Shown in pieces: positions 14,245-63,717 of a stretch of 64,000 bases of DNA. The first letter of the stretch is position 1. Each line of letters begins with the position of its first letter. The stretch spans positions 7,254,001-7,318,000 of the forward strand of contig NC_058368.1 in the NCBI RefSeq assembly GCF_018350175.1, given 5' to 3'. The notes under the pieces are model-generated. The model saw only the letters and a list, made by a program, of their open reading frames with translations. It was not told the origin of the DNA and ran no database searches. Made by a program: the position numbers and the translations under genes. This DNA is from Felis catus (Eukaryota).

Positions 14245-14792
14245 TTTAAAAAAATCATTTATTTTTTTATTTTAACTTCAGGATAGTTAACACAGTGTTA
14301 TATTAGTTTCTGGTGTATAATATAATGATTCAACAATTCTACACATTACTCAGTGGTCATTGTGATCGTGTCCTCTTAATCCCCTTCACCTGTTTCACCC
14401 ATTCCCCCACCTACCTCCCCTCTGTAACCATCAGTTTGTTCTCTGTATTTAGGAGTCTGCTTTTTGGTTTGTCTCTTTTCTCTGTTTTATTTCTTAAATC
14501 CCACATAGGAGTGAAATCATACGGTGTTTGTCTCTGACTGACTGACTTATTTCACTTAGCACTATACCCTCTAGATCCATCCATGTTGTTGCAAATGGCA
14601 AGATTTTGTTCTTTTTAATGACTGAGTAATATTCCATTGTACGTATCCACCATATCTTTATCCATTTATCTATCGGTGGACATTTGGATTGCTTCCATAA
14701 TTTGGCTATTGTAAATAATGCGGCAATAAACATAGGGGTGCATATATCTTTTCAAATTAGTGTTTTCCTATTCTTTGGGTAAATACCCAGCA
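14245..14792 (-). mobile_element. L1 3' end (carnivore / L1MA9-like), 5'-truncated
   Basis: ORF 14494-14733 gives the L1 ORF2 C-terminal and 3'UTR-like translation MFIAALFTIAKLWKQ..CP...W; T-rich tail; imperfect TSD gaaa(gc/at)atactttc. Confidence 0.9.
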
Positions 14793-16890: not shown

Positions 16891-17122
16891 TAAATTGCCA
16901 TTTTTTAAATAAAATTTTAATGGGGGGGGGGGGACAATTCCTTGTCCAAAAACATCATACAAAATAAATACACAACCATGCAGGGAAACATCTCACTAGG
17001 TACCTATTATTACAAGAAAGATTTGATAAAACAGTAAAATCAGAACCCTTACTGATAGCCCATTACAAACATCAAGGTAAATATACTTTCTAGTAGCCAA
17101 TCTCTGCAAAGAAGCAATTACT

Positions 17123-18138
17123 AGCTCCCAAGAAACAAAAGTCCAAGACCAGATGGTTTGGTAAATTCTACCAAACATTTGAAGAAAAATTAATGCCAAT
17201 CTCCTCAAACGCTTCCAAAAAACAGAAGAGGATAGAACACTTCCAAACTCATTTGATGAAGCAAGTATGACCCTGCTACCAAAACCAGACAATGTCACTG
17301 CAAGACAATTATAGGACAATAACCCCAATAAACATAGATGCAAAAATCCTCAATAAAATATTAGCAAACCAAATTAAACAACACATTAAAAGAATCATAC
17401 GTCATAATCAAATGGGATTTATTCCAGGAATGCAAGGACGGTTGAACTCCACTAATCAATCAGCGTGACAGACCATATCAACAAAATGAAGGGTAAAAAT
17501 CACACAATCATCTCAACAGATACAGAAAAAGCATTTGACAAAATTCAGCATTCACTTATGATAAAAACTCTCAATAAAGGGGGCACAGAGAGAAGGTACT
17601 TCAACATAATAAAAGCCATACATGACAAGCCCACAGCTAACATCATACTCAACAGTAAAGAGCTGAAAGCTTTTCCTCTAAAATCAGAAACAAGACAAGG
17701 ATGTCCATTCTTGCCACTTTTATTCAATGCAGTATTGGAAGTCCTGGCCAGAGCAATTAGGCAAGAAAAAAAAAAAAAAAGGCATCCAAATTGGGAATGA
17801 AGAAGTTAAACTGTCATTATATACAGATGACATGATATTTTATATATAAAATTTTAAAGACTCCACCAGAAAACTGTCAGAACAAGCAAAATCAATCAAG
17901 TTGTAGGATACAAAATCAATATACAAAAATCTGTTTTGTTCCTACATACTAATAATGAATTATCAAGGAGACATCAAGAAAATCCCATTTAAATCAGAAA
18001 AAAAAATACTTAGGAATATATCTAACCAAGAAGACCTGTATATAACTAAAACTGTAAGAAAATGATGAAAAAAACTGAACACACAAATAAATGAAAAAAT
18101 ATTCAATACTGGTGGATTAGTAGAATATTGTCAAAATT
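17123..18138 (+). mobile_element. Decayed L1 ORF2 reverse-transcriptase fragment
   Basis: ORF 17465-17800 contains EKAFDKIQH...PTANIILN...[23 protein letters not shown] (YADD-like) motif follows at about 17820 after a frameshift. Multiple stops. Confidence 0.92.
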
Positions 18139-18480
18139 GACACAGGGCTCAATCTCACAACCCTGGGATCATGAACCTGAGCCAAAATCAAGAGCCAGAG
18201 ACATTCAACCAACTGAGCCACCAAGGTGCCCCTCTAATATCATATTCCAACTGAACTCAACGAAAAGACCATCTTTCCCCTTCCCCTTTGTAGAATAAAA
18301 TGGATGTACTCAACACTTCTCAAAATGAAAGATATTCTAAGAGTGCCCACTACAAACATTAATATAGTTAACGGTACAATCTGCAGAATTGATGAACACT
18401 GTAAAATGCACCGAGACATTTCTGATTGGCAAGCAGATTTGTTAAACAATTATTAATTCAGCATAATTTATACTACAATA

Positions 18481-19563
18481 CAGTAAAATCTTGGATTGCA
18501 ATAACTTGTTCGGTAAGTGTTCCACAAGACGAGCAAACTTTTTTTTTTTAATTTTTTTTAAATGTTTGTTTATTTTTGAGAGAGGGACACAGAGTGTGAG
18601 TGGGGAAGGGGCAGAAAGAGAGAGAGAGAGAGACACAGAATCCGAAGCAGGCTCCAGGCTCCGAGCTGTCAGCACAGAGCTCAATGAAGGGCTCAAACCC
18701 ACAAACCGCGAGATCATGACCTGAGCCGAAGTCAGACACTTACCCGACTGAGCCACCCAGGCGCCCCGACCAGCAAACATTTCTAATCAATTTTAACTTG
18801 ATAAACGAGCGACGTCTTGCAATACGAGTAGTACATGACGCCCAATGTCACGCGATCACAACTGCACCAATGGTTCTTCTCTTTCTTGCTGCGGGATTGT
18901 GGGGGATCACCTCCCGTGCTTGGAGGCTCGGTCTCAGGCCGTGGTGCTTGGCAGAAATCAGTGATTTTTCGGAACATCGGAAGGTGCCCACAACTGGCAC
19001 TAGAGTATTTTTTGTCACTTCAAAGCACCTATGGATGGCCCTCTGCTTTTCCAGACACGAGAAAGCTTAGGGATGCTTTGCTTCACTCTAGGTCAGGCTG
19101 CCTGCAGATATCGACCCTTTTCTCTGCTGCCTTATTGCCAGTTACATTAAATACAGTACATAACAAGATCTTATGAAAACTGTACTGTACTCAACATCCA
19201 TGCGAGCATACACAACGGCCCCATGCAGAAAAAGATTCGAGTGAGCCAACAGATAGCAGTGACTCCGGTAGTGATAGTCAAAGTCGTCCTACCCAAAACC
19301 CTCCTGTCTCTTGTCTCCCTCATACTAGCCATGAAGGTTTTCAAAGGTAAGTGCAGGTTAATTTATTTTTCTTTATATTTTGTATTCTTTATTATTTTAT
19401 ATATCAGTATTGTAATCATTTTTACATGAATATATATGGGTTGTGGAATTAATCATCTCAGTTTCCATGATTTCTTATGGGGAAATTCGCTTTGATATAC
19501 AAGTGCTTTGGATTACAAGCAGGTTTCTGGAACAAATTATGCTCACAAACCAAGGTTTTACTG
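18481..19563. mobile_element. Tc1/mariner-pogo (Tigger-type) non-autonomous DNA transposon, interrupted by a SINE
   Basis: Terminal inverted repeats cagtaaaatcttggattgc / caaaccaaggttttactg, with TA duplications at 18479-18480 and 19564-19565. Confidence 0.85.
18539..18767 (-). mobile_element. Can-SINE nested in the Tigger-type element
   Basis: Antisense SINEC flanked by agcaaac. Confidence 0.92.
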
Positions 19564-19786
19564 TATTCCCTAATAACCAAGCTTTTCAGCAAAATTTAAA
19601 GTGAACTAAATAGATATTTTTTCCATGGTTGCATATCTATATTTGTTAGGTCAAAGGAACTTAGTAAATGTTCCATTTTCCCTTAAGTTATCATCAAGAT
19701 GACTAAATGTTTATTATGTTCAGCTATCCCTTTAAAAAAGAGTAAACAACAGGGTCGTGATTTATAGTTTTAAAAAAGGCCAAATT

Positions 19787-19880
19787 GGGCACCTGGGTGG
19801 CTCAGTTGATTAAGCACCTAGGTCTTGATCTCAAGATCATGAGTTCAAGCCCTGGTTTGGGCTCCATGCAAAACAAAATA
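19787..19880 (+). mobile_element. Short Can-SINE
   Basis: tRNA-like head directly followed by an A-tail; TSD aaaaaaggccaaat. Confidence 0.8.
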
Positions 19881-20296
19881 AAAAAGGCCAAATAACCCCT
19901 TATATATATATATCCATCCATCCATCCATCCATCCATCCATCCATCCATCCAACTGAGAAAAATCCCTGCATGGTAATAACTGTTCTTCAAGAGATAAAG
20001 ACTTTCTTAAGGTAATACAATTCAGGTGAGATCACCAAACACATTAAAAACAGAATTTCAAAAAGAAGAGCACATTAAAACAAATTTTGAGCTAATTTAA
20101 ATCAAGGTACAGAGCAGTATGTGTCTAAAAATATCTGTCCATATAGATACATGCATGAGTTTATATGCACAAAATATGTCGAGAGGGATATACAAAAAAG
20201 TAACAGTAGTCAACTCTGAAGGAATTAAGTGGCTGGGGCACAGGAGTAGGAGTGAGGCTTGTTTTTCAAGAAGTACCTATTTGTTCAGACTGACTT

Positions 20297-20421
20297 TTTT
20301 TTAAGGTTACTTATTTATTTATTTATTTCTAAGGAATCTCTACAACCAATGTAGAGCTCGAACTCCCAACCCCCAGATCAAGACTCACAAGCTCTTTCCA
20401 CTGAGCCAGCCGGGTGCTCCC
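20297..20421 (-). mobile_element. Short Can-SINE
   Basis: Antisense head; TSD cagactgacttttt. Confidence 0.8.
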
Positions 20422-33780: not shown

Positions 33781-35236
33781 GCCTTCCCGGGGGCGAGCGC
33801 CGGGGCCGAGCGGCCCAACCCGACACGCGCCTGGGCCAATGGGCGGCAGCGTAGGGCGGGGAGGAGGCGGGCCAGAGAGAAACTCCGCTTATCCCAGAGC
33901 TCGGGGGGCGGGCCAGGCCGGGGCCGTCACTCCCGGGTTAGAGTGAGCCCACTCCGCCCTCGCCGCTGGCCCTCCCCCCACCCGGTCTCGGCTGTCCCCG
34001 CCGCTCGCCTGATTCCCCCGCTGGAGACACGCTCAAGAAGTGCCTCTGCGCTCACCGCGGACCGCCGCGAGGAGAGTGGAACAGCTGGGGGGAGGCAGTG
34101 AGCATCTAGGGGAATCGGGTTGGGGGCAGGAGAACAGGTGGCGCAGGAAAGCAGAAATATAGGTGTGTCGGGGGTGAGAGGACTCTGGGGTAAGGTGGTA
34201 GGGACAGGGGGGCTGACCGGGCCGAGAAAGGCGAGGGGAGTAGGAGATCGAAGAAGGCAGAAGGGTTTTTGGCGAAGAAGAACACCCGCGGAGAAGAGAG
34301 AGAGGAGAGGTACAAAGGAAAAAGGAGGGCGGGGAGCGAGTCTGGGTGGTGAAAGGTTGCCGAGGCGGAGGCAGGAGAGCACCTGGGAACAAAGGTAAGA
34401 GGGAGGTTCTGCAGGTGAAGGAGGTTTATGAAGCTAAAAGGGTAAAAGGAAAAGGAAGTGCAAAGCAAAGGAGGGCGTACGTATTCCAAGTGTAGGAAAG
34501 ATCCTAAGAGAGAAAGGGCGGGGGCAGGGGGGAGAAGAGCAGTTTTCCTTCCAAACTCTCCTCCACGAACGCTTGTCCTTTGACCCATTTGAGGTGTGCA
34601 GCCGCAAGGTCCCGGATGACGCAAACTCGGACTTAAACCCATCCTACTCTGTTGTAAAATTCATCAAGGTGTATCGATCAACTATAGTTTAAACCTGTCA
34701 TCCCACGAACACCACCCCCCTACCCCCTCCTGGCTTGGGGTCCCGCCAGGGAGTAACACGGGTGGAGCAGCAAATCTTAAAGGCCCGATTCCGCCCTAAG
34801 AAGGAAGGTGATTTGGGGGCCGACAGGTAAGGCCCCGCCCCCTTCGCCATCACCTGGGGTAAGGTGCCGAGGGCTGAACCCAAGCGCCCACGGGCGGTTC
34901 TCGGCCTCGAGAGGGGACAGGAGCCCGACCCCACCTCTCCCCGCTGGCTCAGCGGACAGACTAAGCTCCGGGAACTCCAGGTGAGCAACTCGGACCTCGC
35001 CACCGCCCTCCTCGCTCCGGGGGCGGGGCCTGTGGGCGGGGCCTCCGGGCGGAACGTACACGCCCCGCCCAGCGGCTGGGCAGTGCCGCGCCGCTGCGGC
35101 TCCTCCCCCCTCCTTCCGTCTTCGGCTCCTTCCGTCGGTCGTTCCTTCCTTCCTGCTCCGCCTGCACGTTTCGCGATATGGGTTAGAGCCTCCGATCCAG
35201 CAGCACCACCTGAGGATCCCGGAAGCCGCCCCCGCG

Positions 35237-35262
35237 ATGGAAGAAGACCAGGAGTTGGAGAG
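35237..35262 (+). CDS. POLR1D: POLR1D coding exon 1 (MEEDQELE + first 2 nt of R codon), shared by both protein products
   Basis: ATG at 35237 in strong Kozak context (gcgATGg) inside the CpG island. Translates to MEEDQELER, the known mammalian POLR1D N-terminus. Followed by donor AG|GTAACG at 35263 (phase 2). Confidence 0.95.
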
Positions 35263-35989
35263 GTAACGGCCGTGGAGGCGGGTGGGCAGTGGGGGGGGGA
35301 GGCGGGCGGGAGGAGCGGGCCGCGCCCTGCGCCCCGAGCGGGTGGCGGAGGGGCCGGTGGTCGGCCGGGGCCTCCGCCTCCACGGCCCGGCCAGACAGCG
35401 AGCGCCTGGCTGGGAGGACAGGGGAGGGGAGAGAAGTGGGCGCCTGAGCGGGGAGAGGGGGCCCCGACTGGGAAGAGAGGGGAAGACACATGGATGTTTT
35501 GGAGTAGAAACGCTCAGTACCACTAGATGTCCTGGAGGGAGCACAAGTTGTGAGGCCGGACTTAAGTCCCCACATTGCCCCACCCCCAGTTAAAACAGCG
35601 AGAGTAAATAAAGCTAACGTTAGATCGCGCACCAGGCCACTGTTCTCCGAGTGCTGCTATTGGTGCGTTCAGTCAGGCCTAAGCCCCTGTAACTGCGGTC
35701 CAAATTACTCTGTGCGCTCAGTTCTCTTCCTCCCTCCTGCTTGATTTCCATATCCCGGAATTTCCATTCTAGTTAATCTCCTGAAAATGGAAACCAGAGT
35801 GGGGCCTGCACGATGGTAATCTACAGTCTGTTTTTAAAAAGATCTATGTTTTTCCACGCCTTTAAACATTTCTACGCCTTTTCATTCCCTAGCAGAGCCC
35901 ACCCTGTTGTAATCTTATTCCTTTCTTATGACTGTGCCAAAAGGAGATTTTAACAAACATTTGTGTGTTAAGGGGACGCCCCTGTGGCC

Positions 35990-36240
35990 ATGTGGACGGT
36001 CCGAGGGGGTGGGGAAAAAACCGGAGGCAATAATTACATACGTGCTGATAGACTATGTGGAGGCAGGAAAATAAGGGGCTAGTCCTAGCAGTTCTGTGTA
36101 ATTGGAGTGCATTAGAGTATAATGTGTTGCCAGTGTGAGACAGTAAATGCAAAAAAAAAAAAAAAAAGCGAGTTGCAAAACCATATTCAGTATGATCTCA
36201 TTTTTATAAAAAATATGTGTGTAGAAAAATATCTGGATTG
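35990..36240 (+). mobile_element. Probable ancient L1ME-type 3' fragment overlapping the POLR1D exon-2 acceptor
   Basis: aaaaagcgagttgcaaaaccatattcagtatgatctcatttttataaaaaatatgtgtgtagaaaaatatctgga resembles L1ME 3'UTR consensus as I recall it; not verified by alignment. Confidence 0.5.
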
Positions 36241-36600
36241 AAGACCTCAATGGCTGAAGGCGAGAGGAAGACAGCCCTGGAAATGGTCCAGGCAGCTGGA
36301 ACAGATAGACACTGTGTGACATTTGTATTGCACGAGGAGGACCATACCCTAGGAAATTCTCTTCGTTACATGATCATGAAGAACCCGGAAGTGGAGTTTT
36401 GTGGTTACACTACAACCCATCCTTCAGAGAGCAAAATTAATTTACGCATTCAGACTCGAGGTACTCTTCCAGCTGTGGAGCCGTTTCAGAGAGGCTTGAA
36501 TGAGCTCATGAATGTCTGCCAGCATGTGCTTGACAAGTTTGAGGCCAGCATAAAGGAATATAAGGATCAAAAAGCAAGCAGAAAGGAGTCCACATTCTAG
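36225..36600 (+). CDS. POLR1D: POLR1D terminal coding exon: DNA-directed RNA polymerases I and III subunit RPAC2/AC19 (133 aa when joined to exon 1)
   Basis: Acceptor tgtgtAG at 36223-36224. 26+376 nt = 402 nt = 133 codons + TAG. Protein [25 protein letters not shown]...[33 protein letters not shown] contains the RPB11/AC19 (RNA pol L) signature EDHTLGN..R and GY...HP. Confidence 0.97.
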
Positions 36601-36776
36601 TCCCTTACGCACTATACAGGGAGGACTGTCCTCTAGGATATTGTCTTCGTGATCTGGCAAAAAACCCAGAAATAGAAGTTTGTGATCACGACCCGATGTG
36701 TTCTTCAGCAAGGCGTGCTTCTAGCTCTTACCCATTACAGCTGTTGGAATCCCCACAAGAACCTTTGTATTCACCT

Positions 36777-36782
36777 AATAAA
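36777..36782 (+). terminator. Polyadenylation signal for the AC19-encoding short POLR1D transcript
   Basis: AATAAA about 177 nt after the stop codon, followed by a GT-rich downstream element (gagtggtttctgttgcttcgt). Confidence 0.7.
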
Positions 36783-39700
36783 TTCCCTCTTTCATTTAAA
36801 CTAATTTGAGTGGTTTCTGTTGCTTCGTCTGGAAGATTGGCTCTTCCAGGGTTGTTTGTTTTTCTTTTAATTGAGTCAGCAGTGAAAGTAAGCTATGAGA
36901 AAATTACAGGCCTTGAAAGGACTTTGATCAAGGGAATTCAAAAGAATATGCAATATGCATTCATGGCTGTGATTGGGGGAGAAGGAGAGATGCGATGGAG
37001 CCTGACCCCAGCTAGACTGTGATTGGTTTAAAAAAAAAAAAAAGGTGGAAATGGGAAGAGGGTTTAGCTTCTTGTTGGATACTTTTTAGTAACTCATGGG
37101 AGAATTGCATTCTTTGCTATGACTGAGGTCGGGCAAGGGGCAAGGGTGGGGAATAATTTGAAAGAATTGTGAGAATTATGGTTTCACAGGGAGGTTAGGT
37201 AGGATCTAGCACCATCTCTGTGGCAGCATTTATAGGATAGATACCAGTTTACCGCTTTAATTTCAGGACACTAATAAAATATTTTGTCGGAAATGATCTA
37301 AGGAGGTCAAGAGAGTTCATACTATAAAAGGAGGAAACTGGAGTGACCAGATAACATTTTCAGTCCTTAGGTGGGTATCTAGGTATAGCCCAGGGTTACA
37401 TTAAGGATGGGGAGAAGGAAATTCCATGTTGGGAAAATGATTTTTTTTTTAACTTAAAATATTAGCGAACCGCTTCTAAGCTGTCCTGTTAACCTCATCA
37501 ACCTCGTCTCATACCTGTCCTGCCCCACCTTGACTCTTCATTCACCCTAAATCTCTGTCAGCCTTTGAACCTGAGCACCCCACCCCCAGCACTCTTTGCT
37601 TTGGGGCCTTTGTTTTTGCTGTTCTGTCTTCCTGGAACACTTTTACCCTGCCGTACTCTAGGAGAGAACTTAACATGTCCGACTCCGTACCCTAGTTTGG
37701 GTAGTTGTGTGTGTTTCCATTATACTCTTGGGTTTCCCGGTCTCGGATTTACTAGGCTGTTGTTAGCGCTTCTGCTGTCTGCCCACCGTACTGGCTTGCA
37801 GCACCATGCCTGATAAACAATTAGACATTCCTAATTTCTAATCTCGGTAAGGAAGTCAGGGAAGCTCCTCCAGAGATTACAGGAAGAGGAGGGGCTAGCT
37901 GCAAAAACGAGAGAATGCATTCTGGTGGAATAGCTGTGCATAGGTCCTGAAGCAGAAAGCCGGTGGTCTGAGGAATTAAAAGTATTGAAAGATTTGCTTC
38001 TCTGTAGCATAGTAAGCAAGGAGGAGAAAGAAGGGCCTATGCTATGGATTTGGTAGGAAGGAGAGCTGGGGTGGTAAGGGGTTTGGATTTTAAGTACAAT
38101 GGGAGTGACATCTGAATACTTTGATGACTGTAGAGGAGTGAGTTGTAGAGAGGCCAGAGTAGAAGCGGAGAAGCTGTTAAGAGAGTCATTGGCCTGGAAG
38201 GGCAGCAAGCTAGCAATGGACAAGAGAGGGTTGATTTGAAATACACTGTAGAACTGAACCTCAGGAATCGGATGTGGAAGGGGAGAAAACATGACCTCCG
38301 TCTAAGTTTGGGGCCAAATTATTGAAATGGGAAGCTTAAGGGGAGACATAGGTTGGAAAGTGGAAAAGGTAACTGGAATCAAAAATTCCATTGTGAACGT
38401 GGTAGACGGTAGATATGTGAGTTGGAGGCCCTGAAAGATATTTACGCTAGAGACTTTGTGAGTTCTTCAGATCATGCCACCAGGGTTGTGGGATCGAGCC
38501 CTGCGTTGGACTCTGTGCTGAGCGTGGAGCCCGCTTAGGATTCTCCCTCTCTCTTTCCCTCCCTTCCTCCCTCCCTCCCTCTCTCTCTGACTCACTCAAA
38601 TTTTACAAAAGTGATAAAAATGATGTATGTATGTATTTCTATGGAGAAACTGGAGTCTGATAAAAGAAGTGGGCCCAAGACCAAGCTCTGGGCAAGCTCA
38701 GTACTAAAGATTGGGTATAAAAGTAGCAGCCAGTGAGGTATAGAGAGTAGAGTCGTGGAAGCCAGTGCTTTCAAAGAGGGAAAAAAATGGCATTGAATGA
38801 GTCACATGAGGACAGAAAAGTGCTGATTGACATTAACAGGTTGTTGGGCACTAGGCGTATTCGTTTAGTGCCTAACAGGGCTAAACATTAGCACTCACTA
38901 TATAGGAAAAGGACTTAGTTTGGGTTTTCCAATCAAGCAAGTACACCGTAGTGCACTGATGAGCTGAATGTTACTGGGAGCAGGGATGAGGGAAGGTCAA
39001 AGTCATAGGGCCAGGATAGTGTTCTCCTAGAGTGATCCAGAAGAGATTCTGGAAAGCCAATGTCACTGCAAGGAAATTAGCCCTTGAAGATGTAGGGAAC
39101 GTCTAAAAGGATAGTTGAGAATCAAAAACGTTTGCCTCTGAGTATTCCTATGGGGATGGGAAACAGGGTTATTTAACTGAAGTGTAATACCTCTGAACCA
39201 AGACCTCCAGGAGATGAAAGCAAGGCTTAATTAGTGGACATAGAGGTGTAGGATGATGATCATAGACTGAAGTAATTAATAGCAGTACATGTGGGAAATG
39301 CACTCACGTGACTACCTCCATATCACGTGGCTTCGTTGCTCCGAAGATTTATCATCACTGATCTTGCGACTTGCGGTCTTGAATCTGCTTAGAGTGGCCG
39401 TAAATGCACAGGTTGATGCAGAACAGCTTTAGAAAGGAAGATGGGTGGAAGGAAAAGACCGAGGGCAGGACTGGAGGGGTAACCAAGAGTCGGGTATGAG
39501 TGGGAACAATCTGCATAAACTCTGTGGCATCTGACAGAAGATTGAGTTGGTCCTTAAAAGGGTAAGGGAGATAAACAGGAGTCAAATATATTTATGTATG
39601 AACTGTGAAAAAATAACTTGATCCGTACCTCTGATTTGCTAATAGCTTTTCACTGAAACGAATATTAATGATTTAAAATCAGAAATCTCGTTCAGCTGTA

Positions 39701-62551: not shown

Positions 62552-63300
62552 AGAGTAATGTCTCAGAATATGATTGATAAGTATGTTTTCTGGGGTTTTT
62601 TTTTTTCAAAATCTTGCTAAAAAGTACACAAATAATACAGACTCACTCTAGAAAAAATAGAAAATACAGAAAGCAAACAAAAAAAAATTAAAATCACCCA
62701 GAAACTCCTCTTACCATCTTGATAACACCCGTCCAAATGTTTTCCTGGGTAATACACACATGCAAAGAAATCTGAAATAAAAATTATCCAATATACGCTG
62801 TACCCATTTTCTTAGGATAAAGTAGAGTTTTTAGGTCAGCAGGTATGTCTTCTTTTGAGGGCTGTTTGTCATGTTGCCAAATTGTCCTAAAGAAGTGTTC
62901 TTTCAGTTTCAGTCCCCATTAGCAGAGCAAAGAGTACTCCTTTCTCTACTCTCTTACTAACTAATGGCTAGAAATATATTTATCAGAGTTGGGTTCATTA
63001 GTATTTCTTAGAATAAGAGTGCATTTGAACATTTTAAATGCAGATACAGCTCGTCATTTTGTCTTTAACTTTCAGTGTGTTTCCCCTTCATATACAAAGT
63101 TTCTTTTTAATTTTTACCTGCTCAAAACTGTCAGCCACGTTGTTGTCGTTGGTTGTTTTAATCTAAAAAAACTTCTCCCCCGTTTTGGCATTCTGTGTTT
63201 CAAAAGCTGTTCTTTCCACAAGATCACATATGTGGAATAAACTGAGTTTTAAGAATTCAGTCGTGTGACTACCTCTCGACTCTGTTTTTCTCCCCATCAG

Positions 63301-63375
63301 GAAAGCAATTGAAGAATTGCTTAAAGAGGCAAAACGTGGCAAAACAAGAGCAGAAACGATGGGACCTATGGGTTG
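63301..63375 (+). CDS. POLR1D: POLR1D alternative exon 2 of the long transcript ('protein POLR1D isoform 2'): (R)KAIEELLKEAKRGKTRAETMGPMG(W); gene continues beyond the window
   Basis: Strong polypyrimidine acceptor tctgtttttctccccatcAG ending at 63300 and donor TG|GTAAGT at 63376. Exon is 75 nt, phase 2-2, in frame with exon 1. The translation matches the isoform-2 sequence as I recall it from human. Confidence 0.9.
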
Positions 63376-63717
63376 GTAAGTTCTTGAGTGATCTTCCTTA
63401 AAACAGAACAGTAGTCAAGAGAAAGTCTCGGCCGGAGACGTGGATACGTAAATCTGTAGCCGGTGAAAGGAATGTAAAACTGTGGCTGTAGAGGAAATCC
63501 CCCAGAGGCGAGCAGGAGAGTGGGAGCCCTGTTGGGGGCCAGCTCTGGGGACTCTGCGACCCTGAGGAAGAGGGCTGGGGGTATGGAGGGAGAGCATCTG
63601 TGAAGGGTCCGTCATCCCTTTAGATCACAGATCCCTAGTGGATATGTAGATCTACTGCCCAAAGGCGCCATGTGAGAGTAATGTTGTATCAGTGTTCATT
63701 GTTTAAGGATCTCTGTT

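Follow-up and report, generated by a model that had tools for sequence, protein, structure and literature searches.

The locus considered here is POLR1D of the cat, and several kinds of described system come close to it. In placental mammals POLR1D encodes AC19, an essential subunit that RNA polymerases I and III have in common, and the gene is mutated in Treacher Collins syndrome. In chimeric (host-fused) retrogenes, of which jingwei is reportedly an example, an inserted retrocopy is said to recruit the 5′ exon and the promoter of another gene, the parent persisting and the fusion taking on a new function. In the exonisation of transposable elements (TEs), as it is usually understood, an AG inside a repeat serves as splice acceptor, repeat sequence is translated, and a cassette exon is added. 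Orphan retrogenes of mammals, for instance RNF113A, MARS2 and TRMT12, are processed copies of multi-exon housekeeping genes that remain as the only functional copy after loss of the parent, with broad expression from CpG-island promoters that the copy did not bring (Carelli et al. 2016, PMC4772013; Ciomborowska et al. 2013, PMC3548309). A further paper presents the locus itself, Polr1d, as a case of 'overprinting'; in its account, the ancestral gene for the polymerase subunit gained two more exons at the end (Neme and Tautz 2013, PMC3616865). Our analysis covers a window of 64,000 nucleotides (nt) of Felis catus (assembly GCF_018350175.1, contig NC_058368.1, positions 7,254,001 to 7,318,000 of the forward strand), numbered from its first letter. 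The combined picture that we consider likely is that placental POLR1D belongs to two kinds at once, orphan retrogene and chimeric retrogene: the sole AC19 gene would descend from one retroposition into a LINE-1 (L1) element's 3′ untranslated region (3′UTR), the acceptor and 8 linker residues of the AC19 exon would be made of L1 sequence, the 17 residues added at the N-terminus would be a placental novelty, and the direction of the 'overprinting' would be reversed.

With the orphan retrogenes, the locus shares a processed copy of a multi-exon housekeeping gene as the only functional one, the parent being lost, and broad expression from a CpG-island promoter of foreign origin. It differs from them in that the AC19 copy has no promoter of its own and that splicing joins it, in frame, to a host gene's first coding exon, the host gene still making its own unrelated protein. 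The recruitment of another gene's 5′ exon and promoter is what it has in common with retrogenes of the jingwei type, as these are generally described, whereas the AC19 fusion keeps an old essential function, its parent is gone, and the host product is retained as an alternative isoform. The probable use of an AG inside an L1 3′UTR as acceptor, with translation of the repeat (KISG...), recalls TE exonisation. Unlike the usual account of that process, no cassette exon has been added; the TE would provide the link by which an entire retrocopied gene is attached to a host transcript. The 'overprinting' case concerns this same locus, with two unrelated proteins that have a common start codon and a few residues; here, in contrast, the shared and the downstream exons would be the old resident gene and the AC19 exon the newcomer (PMC3616865). 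POLR1D is absent from the main text of the two orphan-retrogene papers (PMC4772013 and PMC3548309). No paper treating it as a retrogene or retrocopy was found, although a listing in the supplements of either or in Table 2 of PMC4772013 remains possible, and the apparent literature matches for POLR1D together with retrogene terms concern other genes or a clinical 'retroposition'.

Except for the promoter region, the parts of the locus described here lie on the forward strand. The coding part of exon 1 (35237–35262; ATG 35237) comprises MEEDQELE plus 2 nt of an R codon and is followed by the donor GT at 35263–35264. It stands within a CpG-rich promoter region (34701–35600; GC 0.69, CpG observed/expected 0.71) that belongs to the host gene and is common to both products. 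After some 960 nt of intron 1, the AC19 block follows as a single exon (36225 to about 36804), an alternative splice partner of exon 1. It opens with the linker KISGLKTS (36225–36249), in which 1 nt finishes the R codon and 8 residues follow. The AC19 (RPAC2) coding sequence then runs without introns from the ATG at 36250 to the stop TAG ending at 36600, and a 3′UTR of about 200 nt (36601–36804) carries AATAAA at 36777–36782, the mRNA ending near 36804. An open frame extends from 36196 to the stop codon (36598–36600). The initial annotation had described an intronless block with the polymerase-subunit domain, 3′UTR and AATAAA, an in-frame ATG at 36250 (MAEGERK) and a place in intron 1 of a longer gene, and all of this agrees with the anatomy just given. 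It had also proposed that the first nine codons were borrowed from the host; the borrowing holds, but the borrowed part is 8 codons plus 2 nt and not exactly nine codons.

The other partner of exon 1 is the second coding exon of the host gene (63301–63375, 75 nt; acceptor AG at 63299–63300, donor GT at 63376–7), which specifies the product annotated as isoform 2. It is in the same splice phase as the AC19 exon, encodes part of an unrelated basic protein, and joins the last exon of the host gene, located about 18 kb past the end of the window (L013:7951–8241). The product of the joined window exons and this last exon is identical to the first 131 residues of a Felis catus database entry (P0260). 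The two acceptors are of very different quality. Before the AG of the AC19 exon (36223–36224, preceded as tgtgtAG), the polypyrimidine tract is weak: 45% of the preceding 20 nt are pyrimidines and the longest run is 3, a level equal to the mean of 0.453 over all 4443 AG dinucleotides of the window. At 63300, the corresponding values are 85% and a run of 11, and 0.8% of the AGs in the window reach that level, so that the weakness ascribed earlier to the AC19 acceptor is borne out. Just 5′ of the AC19 exon (35901–36250), GC is 0.39 and there are 6 CpG; as GC is so much higher at exon 1, the AC19 copy appears to have no promoter of its own.

The block at 36225–36600 encodes the AC19/RPAC2 subunit with a dimerisation domain of the Rpb11/RpoL type. 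Its translation (36226–36597) matches Pfam RNA_pol_L_2 over residues 30–103 (E=1.6e-28) as well as RNA_pol_L (E=1.7e-12), and the product shares 94–98% identity with the named RPAC2 proteins of placentals. When the AC19 exon was searched against proteins, 409 relatives were returned, and the counts below are taken from the 120 listed. The host-exon motif is present in 22 of the 120, which thus keep the junction between exon 1 and the AC19 exon, and all the named ones among them are placental; since elephant and golden mole are included, the chimeric arrangement would predate the placental radiation. Among the matches listed, MEEDQELER occurs in none of the named AC19 proteins of non-placental vertebrates (a marsupial, platypus, birds, reptiles, frogs, fish and sharks). 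Most of the 98 homologues that lack the motif (62) begin 10–17 residues before VQA, which is the position of ATG 36250, and the other 36 are alternative, partial or fragmentary models. Because non-placental AC19 proteins begin at the equivalent methionine, ATG 36250 is the ancestral start codon; a start near MAE.. outside placentals was what the initial annotation had expected.

The linker is seen in placentals only and varies among them, being for instance KIHGRKTS in the golden mole, with a variant of its own in the elephant. It probably consists of L1 3′UTR plus a few nt of the parental 5′UTR. The placental sequences group into one clade (support 100/99) when 25 AC19 proteins are placed in a tree. 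The stem of this clade, at 0.22 changes per column, is the longest inner branch, as would fit one event and a subsequent burst of change. Placental AC19 is altered at sites where 20 non-placental vertebrates show little or no variation (GYSITHP to GYTTTHP, INF to INL), and the placental C-terminal tail is longer and different (..KASRKESTF). Three transcript-derived proteins (P0005, P0009 and P0004) extend upstream through the acceptor into intron sequence, which suggests unspliced RNA or start sites inside intron 1. Given these transcripts, part of the AC19 could be translated from the internal ATG.

The ownership of exon 1 was approached through the other product, with its last exon and then the platypus protein as queries. 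The protein so found, which databases call 'protein POLR1D' (precomputed Pfam label PF28113), occurs across tetrapods and in the coelacanth. Its N-terminus reads MEEDEELERKAIEELL in the wallaby (P0244), MEEDPELERK in birds (P0252/P0257), MEEDMELERK in turtles (P0209) and the tuatara (P0227), MDEDPELERK in a crocodile (P0210), MAEDSELERK in squamates, MQEDELERK in frogs (P0238/P0269) and MDTEEELERK in the coelacanth (P0265). The motif is shown by 92 of the 155 host-type proteins compared, the remainder being truncated or alternative models. Since a start of the form MEED.ELERK heads this protein from coelacanth to marsupials, exon 1 is native to the host gene and not to AC19. The two proteins are unrelated: turtle AC19 and turtle 'protein POLR1D' show no similarity (E=1.7). 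The stand-alone gene of isoform-2 type that had been expected outside placentals thus exists, already with a first exon of the form MEED.ELER.

Outside placentals, the two genes also seem to be located apart. Contigs for both genes could be compared in 12 non-placental species, and in every one of the 12 their lengths differ, which is a proxy for separate location and not a measure of synteny. The species are Hymenochirus, Xenopus tropicalis, X. laevis, Rhinatrema, Ambystoma, Discoglossus, Ascaphus, Lepidochelys, Dermochelys, Mauremys, Rhineura and Accipiter. By this proxy, a single-exon AC19 at the same syntenic position was not encountered, and, as described below, a repeat match at the acceptor was.

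Two side observations concern the host-type protein. In many non-placental annotations, the true AC19 is named 'RPAC2-like' and the name POLR1D is given to the unrelated host-type gene, which in X. tropicalis is 'RNA polymerase I and III subunit D, gene 1' and whose coelacanth protein bears the UniRef name 'Si:ch211-140b10.6'. This naming trap follows from the placental fusion. The felid C-terminal part (L013:7951–8241) is unusually diverged and rich in G+C and in Pro, Gly and Arg (GPARGPAR), with 84% identity to Panthera onca but no more than about 70% to other carnivores, and in the jaguar the protein is 142 residues long in place of the usual 122.

For a gene that has passed through an mRNA, introns present in the parent should be missing from the copy, and the non-placental AC19 proteins offer a view of where such introns would lie. 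Predicted isoforms of these proteins depart from the canonical form at recurrent points, from which three coding introns can be deduced; their sites span 36288–36544 on the forward strand (about 36288/9, LEMV|QA; 36384/5, MKN|PEV; 36543/4, FE|A). At LEMV|QA, before (V/I)QA.G, 14 proteins from birds, frogs, caecilians, a sturgeon and a ray diverge, 12 by alternative N-termini and 2 by in-frame insertions (Ascaphus P0065 and ostrich P0104). At MKN|PEV, one turtle protein (P0107) has a 19-residue insertion, and after FE| 7 models from birds, a turtle and Xenopus switch to alternative C-termini. The sequence of the window is uninterrupted at all three points. The ancestral AC19 gene may accordingly have had about four coding exons, and the AC19 block would lack all introns of that multi-exon parental gene. 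A zebrafish polr1d mutation is described as located in 'the first intron' (PMC4957770). A scan of metagenomes yielded 80 loci of at most 62% identity that resemble microbial eukaryotes rather than vertebrates, and it says nothing on vertebrate introns.

The parental gene itself is missing from the cat. A six-frame AC19 search of the whole 2.4-Gb genome, in which 13 candidates were scored, gave 5 matches at 4 loci, namely the exon in the window and copies on contigs C39, C2 and C47 that carry stops or frameshifts. A multi-exon AC19 gene was not found in this search, nor was any copy split at the deduced intron points. The replacement of the parental gene, as claimed in the initial annotation, therefore agrees with the absence of a multi-exon AC19 gene from this genome. 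Two of the copies, L005 (G000:C2:45764374–45765050, approximately) and L004 (G000:C39:907050–907570, approximately), are 82–86% identical to the window and keep the junction 35262|36225 between exon 1 and the AC19 exon exactly, so the junction is used, and both are processed pseudogenes of the chimeric mRNA. In a blastn alignment, L005 is collinear with the AC19 exon to 36800 and continues ...atttaaact before an A-rich run, which places the mRNA end near 36804. The third copy is a short AC19 fragment (C47:127607882–127608049).

The sequence around the AC19 exon was compared with L1 elements in several ways. A 26-nt stretch 5′ of the acceptor is a dispersed repeat, its pattern having 41 genomic matches against 0 for the reversed control. 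A first profile, made from 26 genomic copies with the window left out, matches 36162–36210 (envelope 36142–36236) with E=5e-8. This is its second-best match in the window; the best falls at the end of a reverse-strand open reading frame (ORF) at 14497–14751, which matches residues 1189–1273 of the 1274 of human LINE-1 ORF2p in solved structures (E=1.2e-25). As the two share profile positions, the stretch 36162–36210, whose end stands 13 nt upstream of the acceptor, is an L1 ORF2 tail. A second profile was built from 22 L1 3′UTR copies picked by a motif pair not taken from the window (37 matches against 5 in controls). It aligns 36156–36234 across the acceptor, weakly (E=0.069), with TGTGTAGAAAAATATCT of the window opposite tgcatagaaaaaa-tct of the L1 3′UTR. 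A blastn alignment with one L1 copy (L009) extends through 36232, and the L1 alignments around the linker reach 36234–36246. The 5′ half of the L1 remnant (36142–36249, forward strand) would thus be an old, 5′-truncated element with the last ORF2 codons and the beginning of the 3′UTR, containing the acceptor and the linker. Of the initial claim that an L1 surrounds the acceptor, the part concerning 36162–36210 stands firmly, and the part concerning the acceptor itself and the KISG codons is more weakly sustained. The initial annotation had likened the sequence to L1ME; the L1 copies used differ from the window by about 18–35%, which fits an old L1 and names no subfamily. A run of 17 A at 36154–36170 lies inside the remnant, at a place where the A-run of L1 copies is short (..gaaaaaagcaag..); it may have expanded, or be the tail left by an upstream insertion.

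The L1 3′UTR seems to resume on the other side of the AC19 exon, in addition to the repeat match that had been anticipated at the acceptor. For a block of a position-specific scoring matrix from the 22 L1 copies, 36797–36821 (forward strand) is the fifth-ranking site when about 128,000 positions of both strands are scored, and the third when forward-strand positions alone are counted. From there the L1 may run on to an A-run at 37031–37044. The chance of such a rank in an 80-nt zone on one strand is roughly 0.003. The block begins 20 nt after the AATAAA and within 25 nt of the mRNA end. When 36247–36797 is excised in silico, the best of 100 boundary pairs, the profile score rises from 7.4 to 13.2 bits and the alignment crosses the join to reach profile position 189. 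If the insert is taken as 36250–36797, 37 nt are left between CTGGA.. and ..GTGGTT.C in the joined L1, and this spacing is the commonest, found in 14 of the 24 clearly L1-like matches measured, out of 37. The AC19 copy would therefore appear to be confined to the extent of an mRNA, as judged from L1-like sequence that reaches to within a few nt of the ATG and starts again at 36797.

Other L1 pieces in the window are the ORF2 C-terminus already mentioned (14497–14751, reverse strand), an ORF with an RVT_1 match at 17456–17797 (forward strand, E=2e-11), and an old L1 3′UTR at 20104–20289 (forward strand), which is the best match of the 3′UTR profile (E=1.6e-5). Several searches were of little use. 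When the acceptor region or locus L002 was the query, DNA searches of the genome found just 1–2 further copies, a strict two-motif L1 pattern had no genomic match, a nhmmer seed of a single sequence found 2 weak relatives only, and a loose fuzzy pattern over the retrieved loci gave largely chance matches. For the profile work, 16 short additional L1 copies were obtained. In blastn of the L1 region 17300–20400 of the window against L1 copies, matches to short interspersed elements (SINEs) dominate. Pfam had no match in the ORFs 36116–36238 and 35913–36071, nor in 4 of the 5 ORFs near 15–18 kb, and the Protein Data Bank had none for the ORF 16999–17349 on the reverse strand.

The explanation that we favour, and hold to be quite probable as a whole, is that an AC19 mRNA was retrocopied into an L1 3′UTR in intron 1 of the host gene, recruited the host promoter and exon 1, and was followed by the loss of its parent. 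In the placental stem lineage, a processed mRNA of the ancestral AC19 gene would have been reverse-transcribed and inserted in sense orientation into the 3′UTR of a 5′-truncated L1 that was already present in intron 1 of the older, unrelated 'protein POLR1D' gene. The copy would have brought the start codon at 36250, the full coding sequence, the 3′UTR and the poly(A) signal, but no promoter, and would have been transcribed from the CpG-island promoter of the host. The AG at 36223–4 in the L1 3′UTR may then have served host exon 1 as a weak acceptor, with the ninth codon being finished in frame and 17 residues (9 from the host, 8 from the linker) being gained before the old methionine, while the copy's own AATAAA would end the AC19 transcript. 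Depending on whether splicing uses the weak acceptor at 36224 or its strong counterpart at 63300, one or the other of two unrelated proteins would be made, and both persist. The multi-exon parent would have been lost afterwards, leaving the AC19 exon as the only AC19 gene. That the AC19 exon is a retrocopy captured by the host gene, with the parent lost, is very probable in our judgement; that the acceptor is L1-derived and the L1 split by the insertion is reasonably likely. The proposal of a retroposed AC19 captured by a host gene, made in the initial annotation, is on the whole upheld, its testable predictions having come out as expected.

Alternatively, the capture may be correct and the acceptor and linker still not be L1. 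The L1 would then end near 36210, 36211–36249 would be parental 5′UTR or unique intron, and the match after the exon would be due to chance. The strong L1 match does end at 36210, the alignment across the acceptor has the E of 0.069 given above, the region is A/T-rich and of low complexity, and Pfam is blank in the ORF 36116–36238. Fish and frog models that read into the 5′UTR often have S before the methionine, like the placental ..TSM, which hints that a few nt 5′ of the ATG came with the copy. Nevertheless, two independent profiles align collinearly and L009 aligns through 36232; moreover, the high-ranking downstream block lies on the right strand so close to the mRNA end, and the spacing of the two L1 halves is the commonest among the L1 copies measured. 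We regard this possibility as improbable. A move at the DNA level, in which duplication or translocation carried a genomic copy of AC19 into the intron and the copy lost its own introns later, would account for the missing scars of insertion, as neither a poly(A) tail nor a target-site duplication is seen. However, all three deduced introns are gone, the start of the block is no further than about 5–25 nt from the start codon, its other end coincides with the mRNA 3′ end, and it lies between collinear halves of one L1 3′UTR. The stepwise and precise loss of three introns together with trimming to the mRNA boundaries demands many more events, and this route is very unlikely. The 'overprinting' explanation (Neme and Tautz 2013, PMC3616865) holds that AC19 is ancestral at this locus with this start codon and that the two downstream exons were acquired later. 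AC19 is indeed the older family (phylostratum 2 in that paper, against 5 for the other protein), and both products share one start codon in the mouse and human annotation. Yet in each of the non-placental lineages seen, the start codon and the first 9 residues head the other protein and not AC19. Outside placentals, moreover, all 12 species have the two genes on different contigs, and AC19 has its own methionine start and, as deduced, introns. This explanation is hardly credible. AC19 as the prior owner of this start codon and locus was rejected, since no named non-placental AC19 has the motif and the motif heads the other protein from coelacanth to marsupials.

Several points weigh against the captured retrocopy in an L1 that we favour. 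The L1 homology over the acceptor is weak, the ungapped block reaches no more than the top 0.1% of scores there, and the gain on excision is about 6 bits, selected from 100 boundary pairs. Neither L1 profile detects L1 3′ of 36821, including the A-run at 37031–37044. A target-site duplication was sought by eye around the copy and not found, and by eye no poly(A) remnant is recognisable 3′ of it apart from AAA at 36799–36801; both count only weakly, as such a remnant and duplication are expected to be erased after about 100 million years. The parental intron positions derive from predicted protein isoforms and not from genomic DNA, and the different chromosomes of the two genes are deduced from the lengths of database-cluster contigs. 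The dating after the marsupial split is carried by one short marsupial AC19 protein (P0026) and the separate marsupial 'protein POLR1D' (P0242, P0244).

Our study adds a clear case of an essential housekeeping gene replaced by its own retrocopy. The combination is a rare one, in which an orphan retrogene is also chimeric and the host gene retains its product, although each kind was already known. It also corrects a textbook-style example of 'overprinting' and accounts for the use of the POLR1D name by annotation pipelines for two unrelated genes outside placentals. The finding bears on cross-species models, as the AC19 gene of zebrafish, frog and chick appears to be differently built and to lie at another locus, and is without the added N-terminal residues. 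If AC19 is a captured retrocopy, the reading of variants in intron 1 and at the acceptors of POLR1D would be affected, and the expression of placental AC19 would hang on a foreign promoter and on the competition of a weak, repeat-derived acceptor with a strong one downstream.

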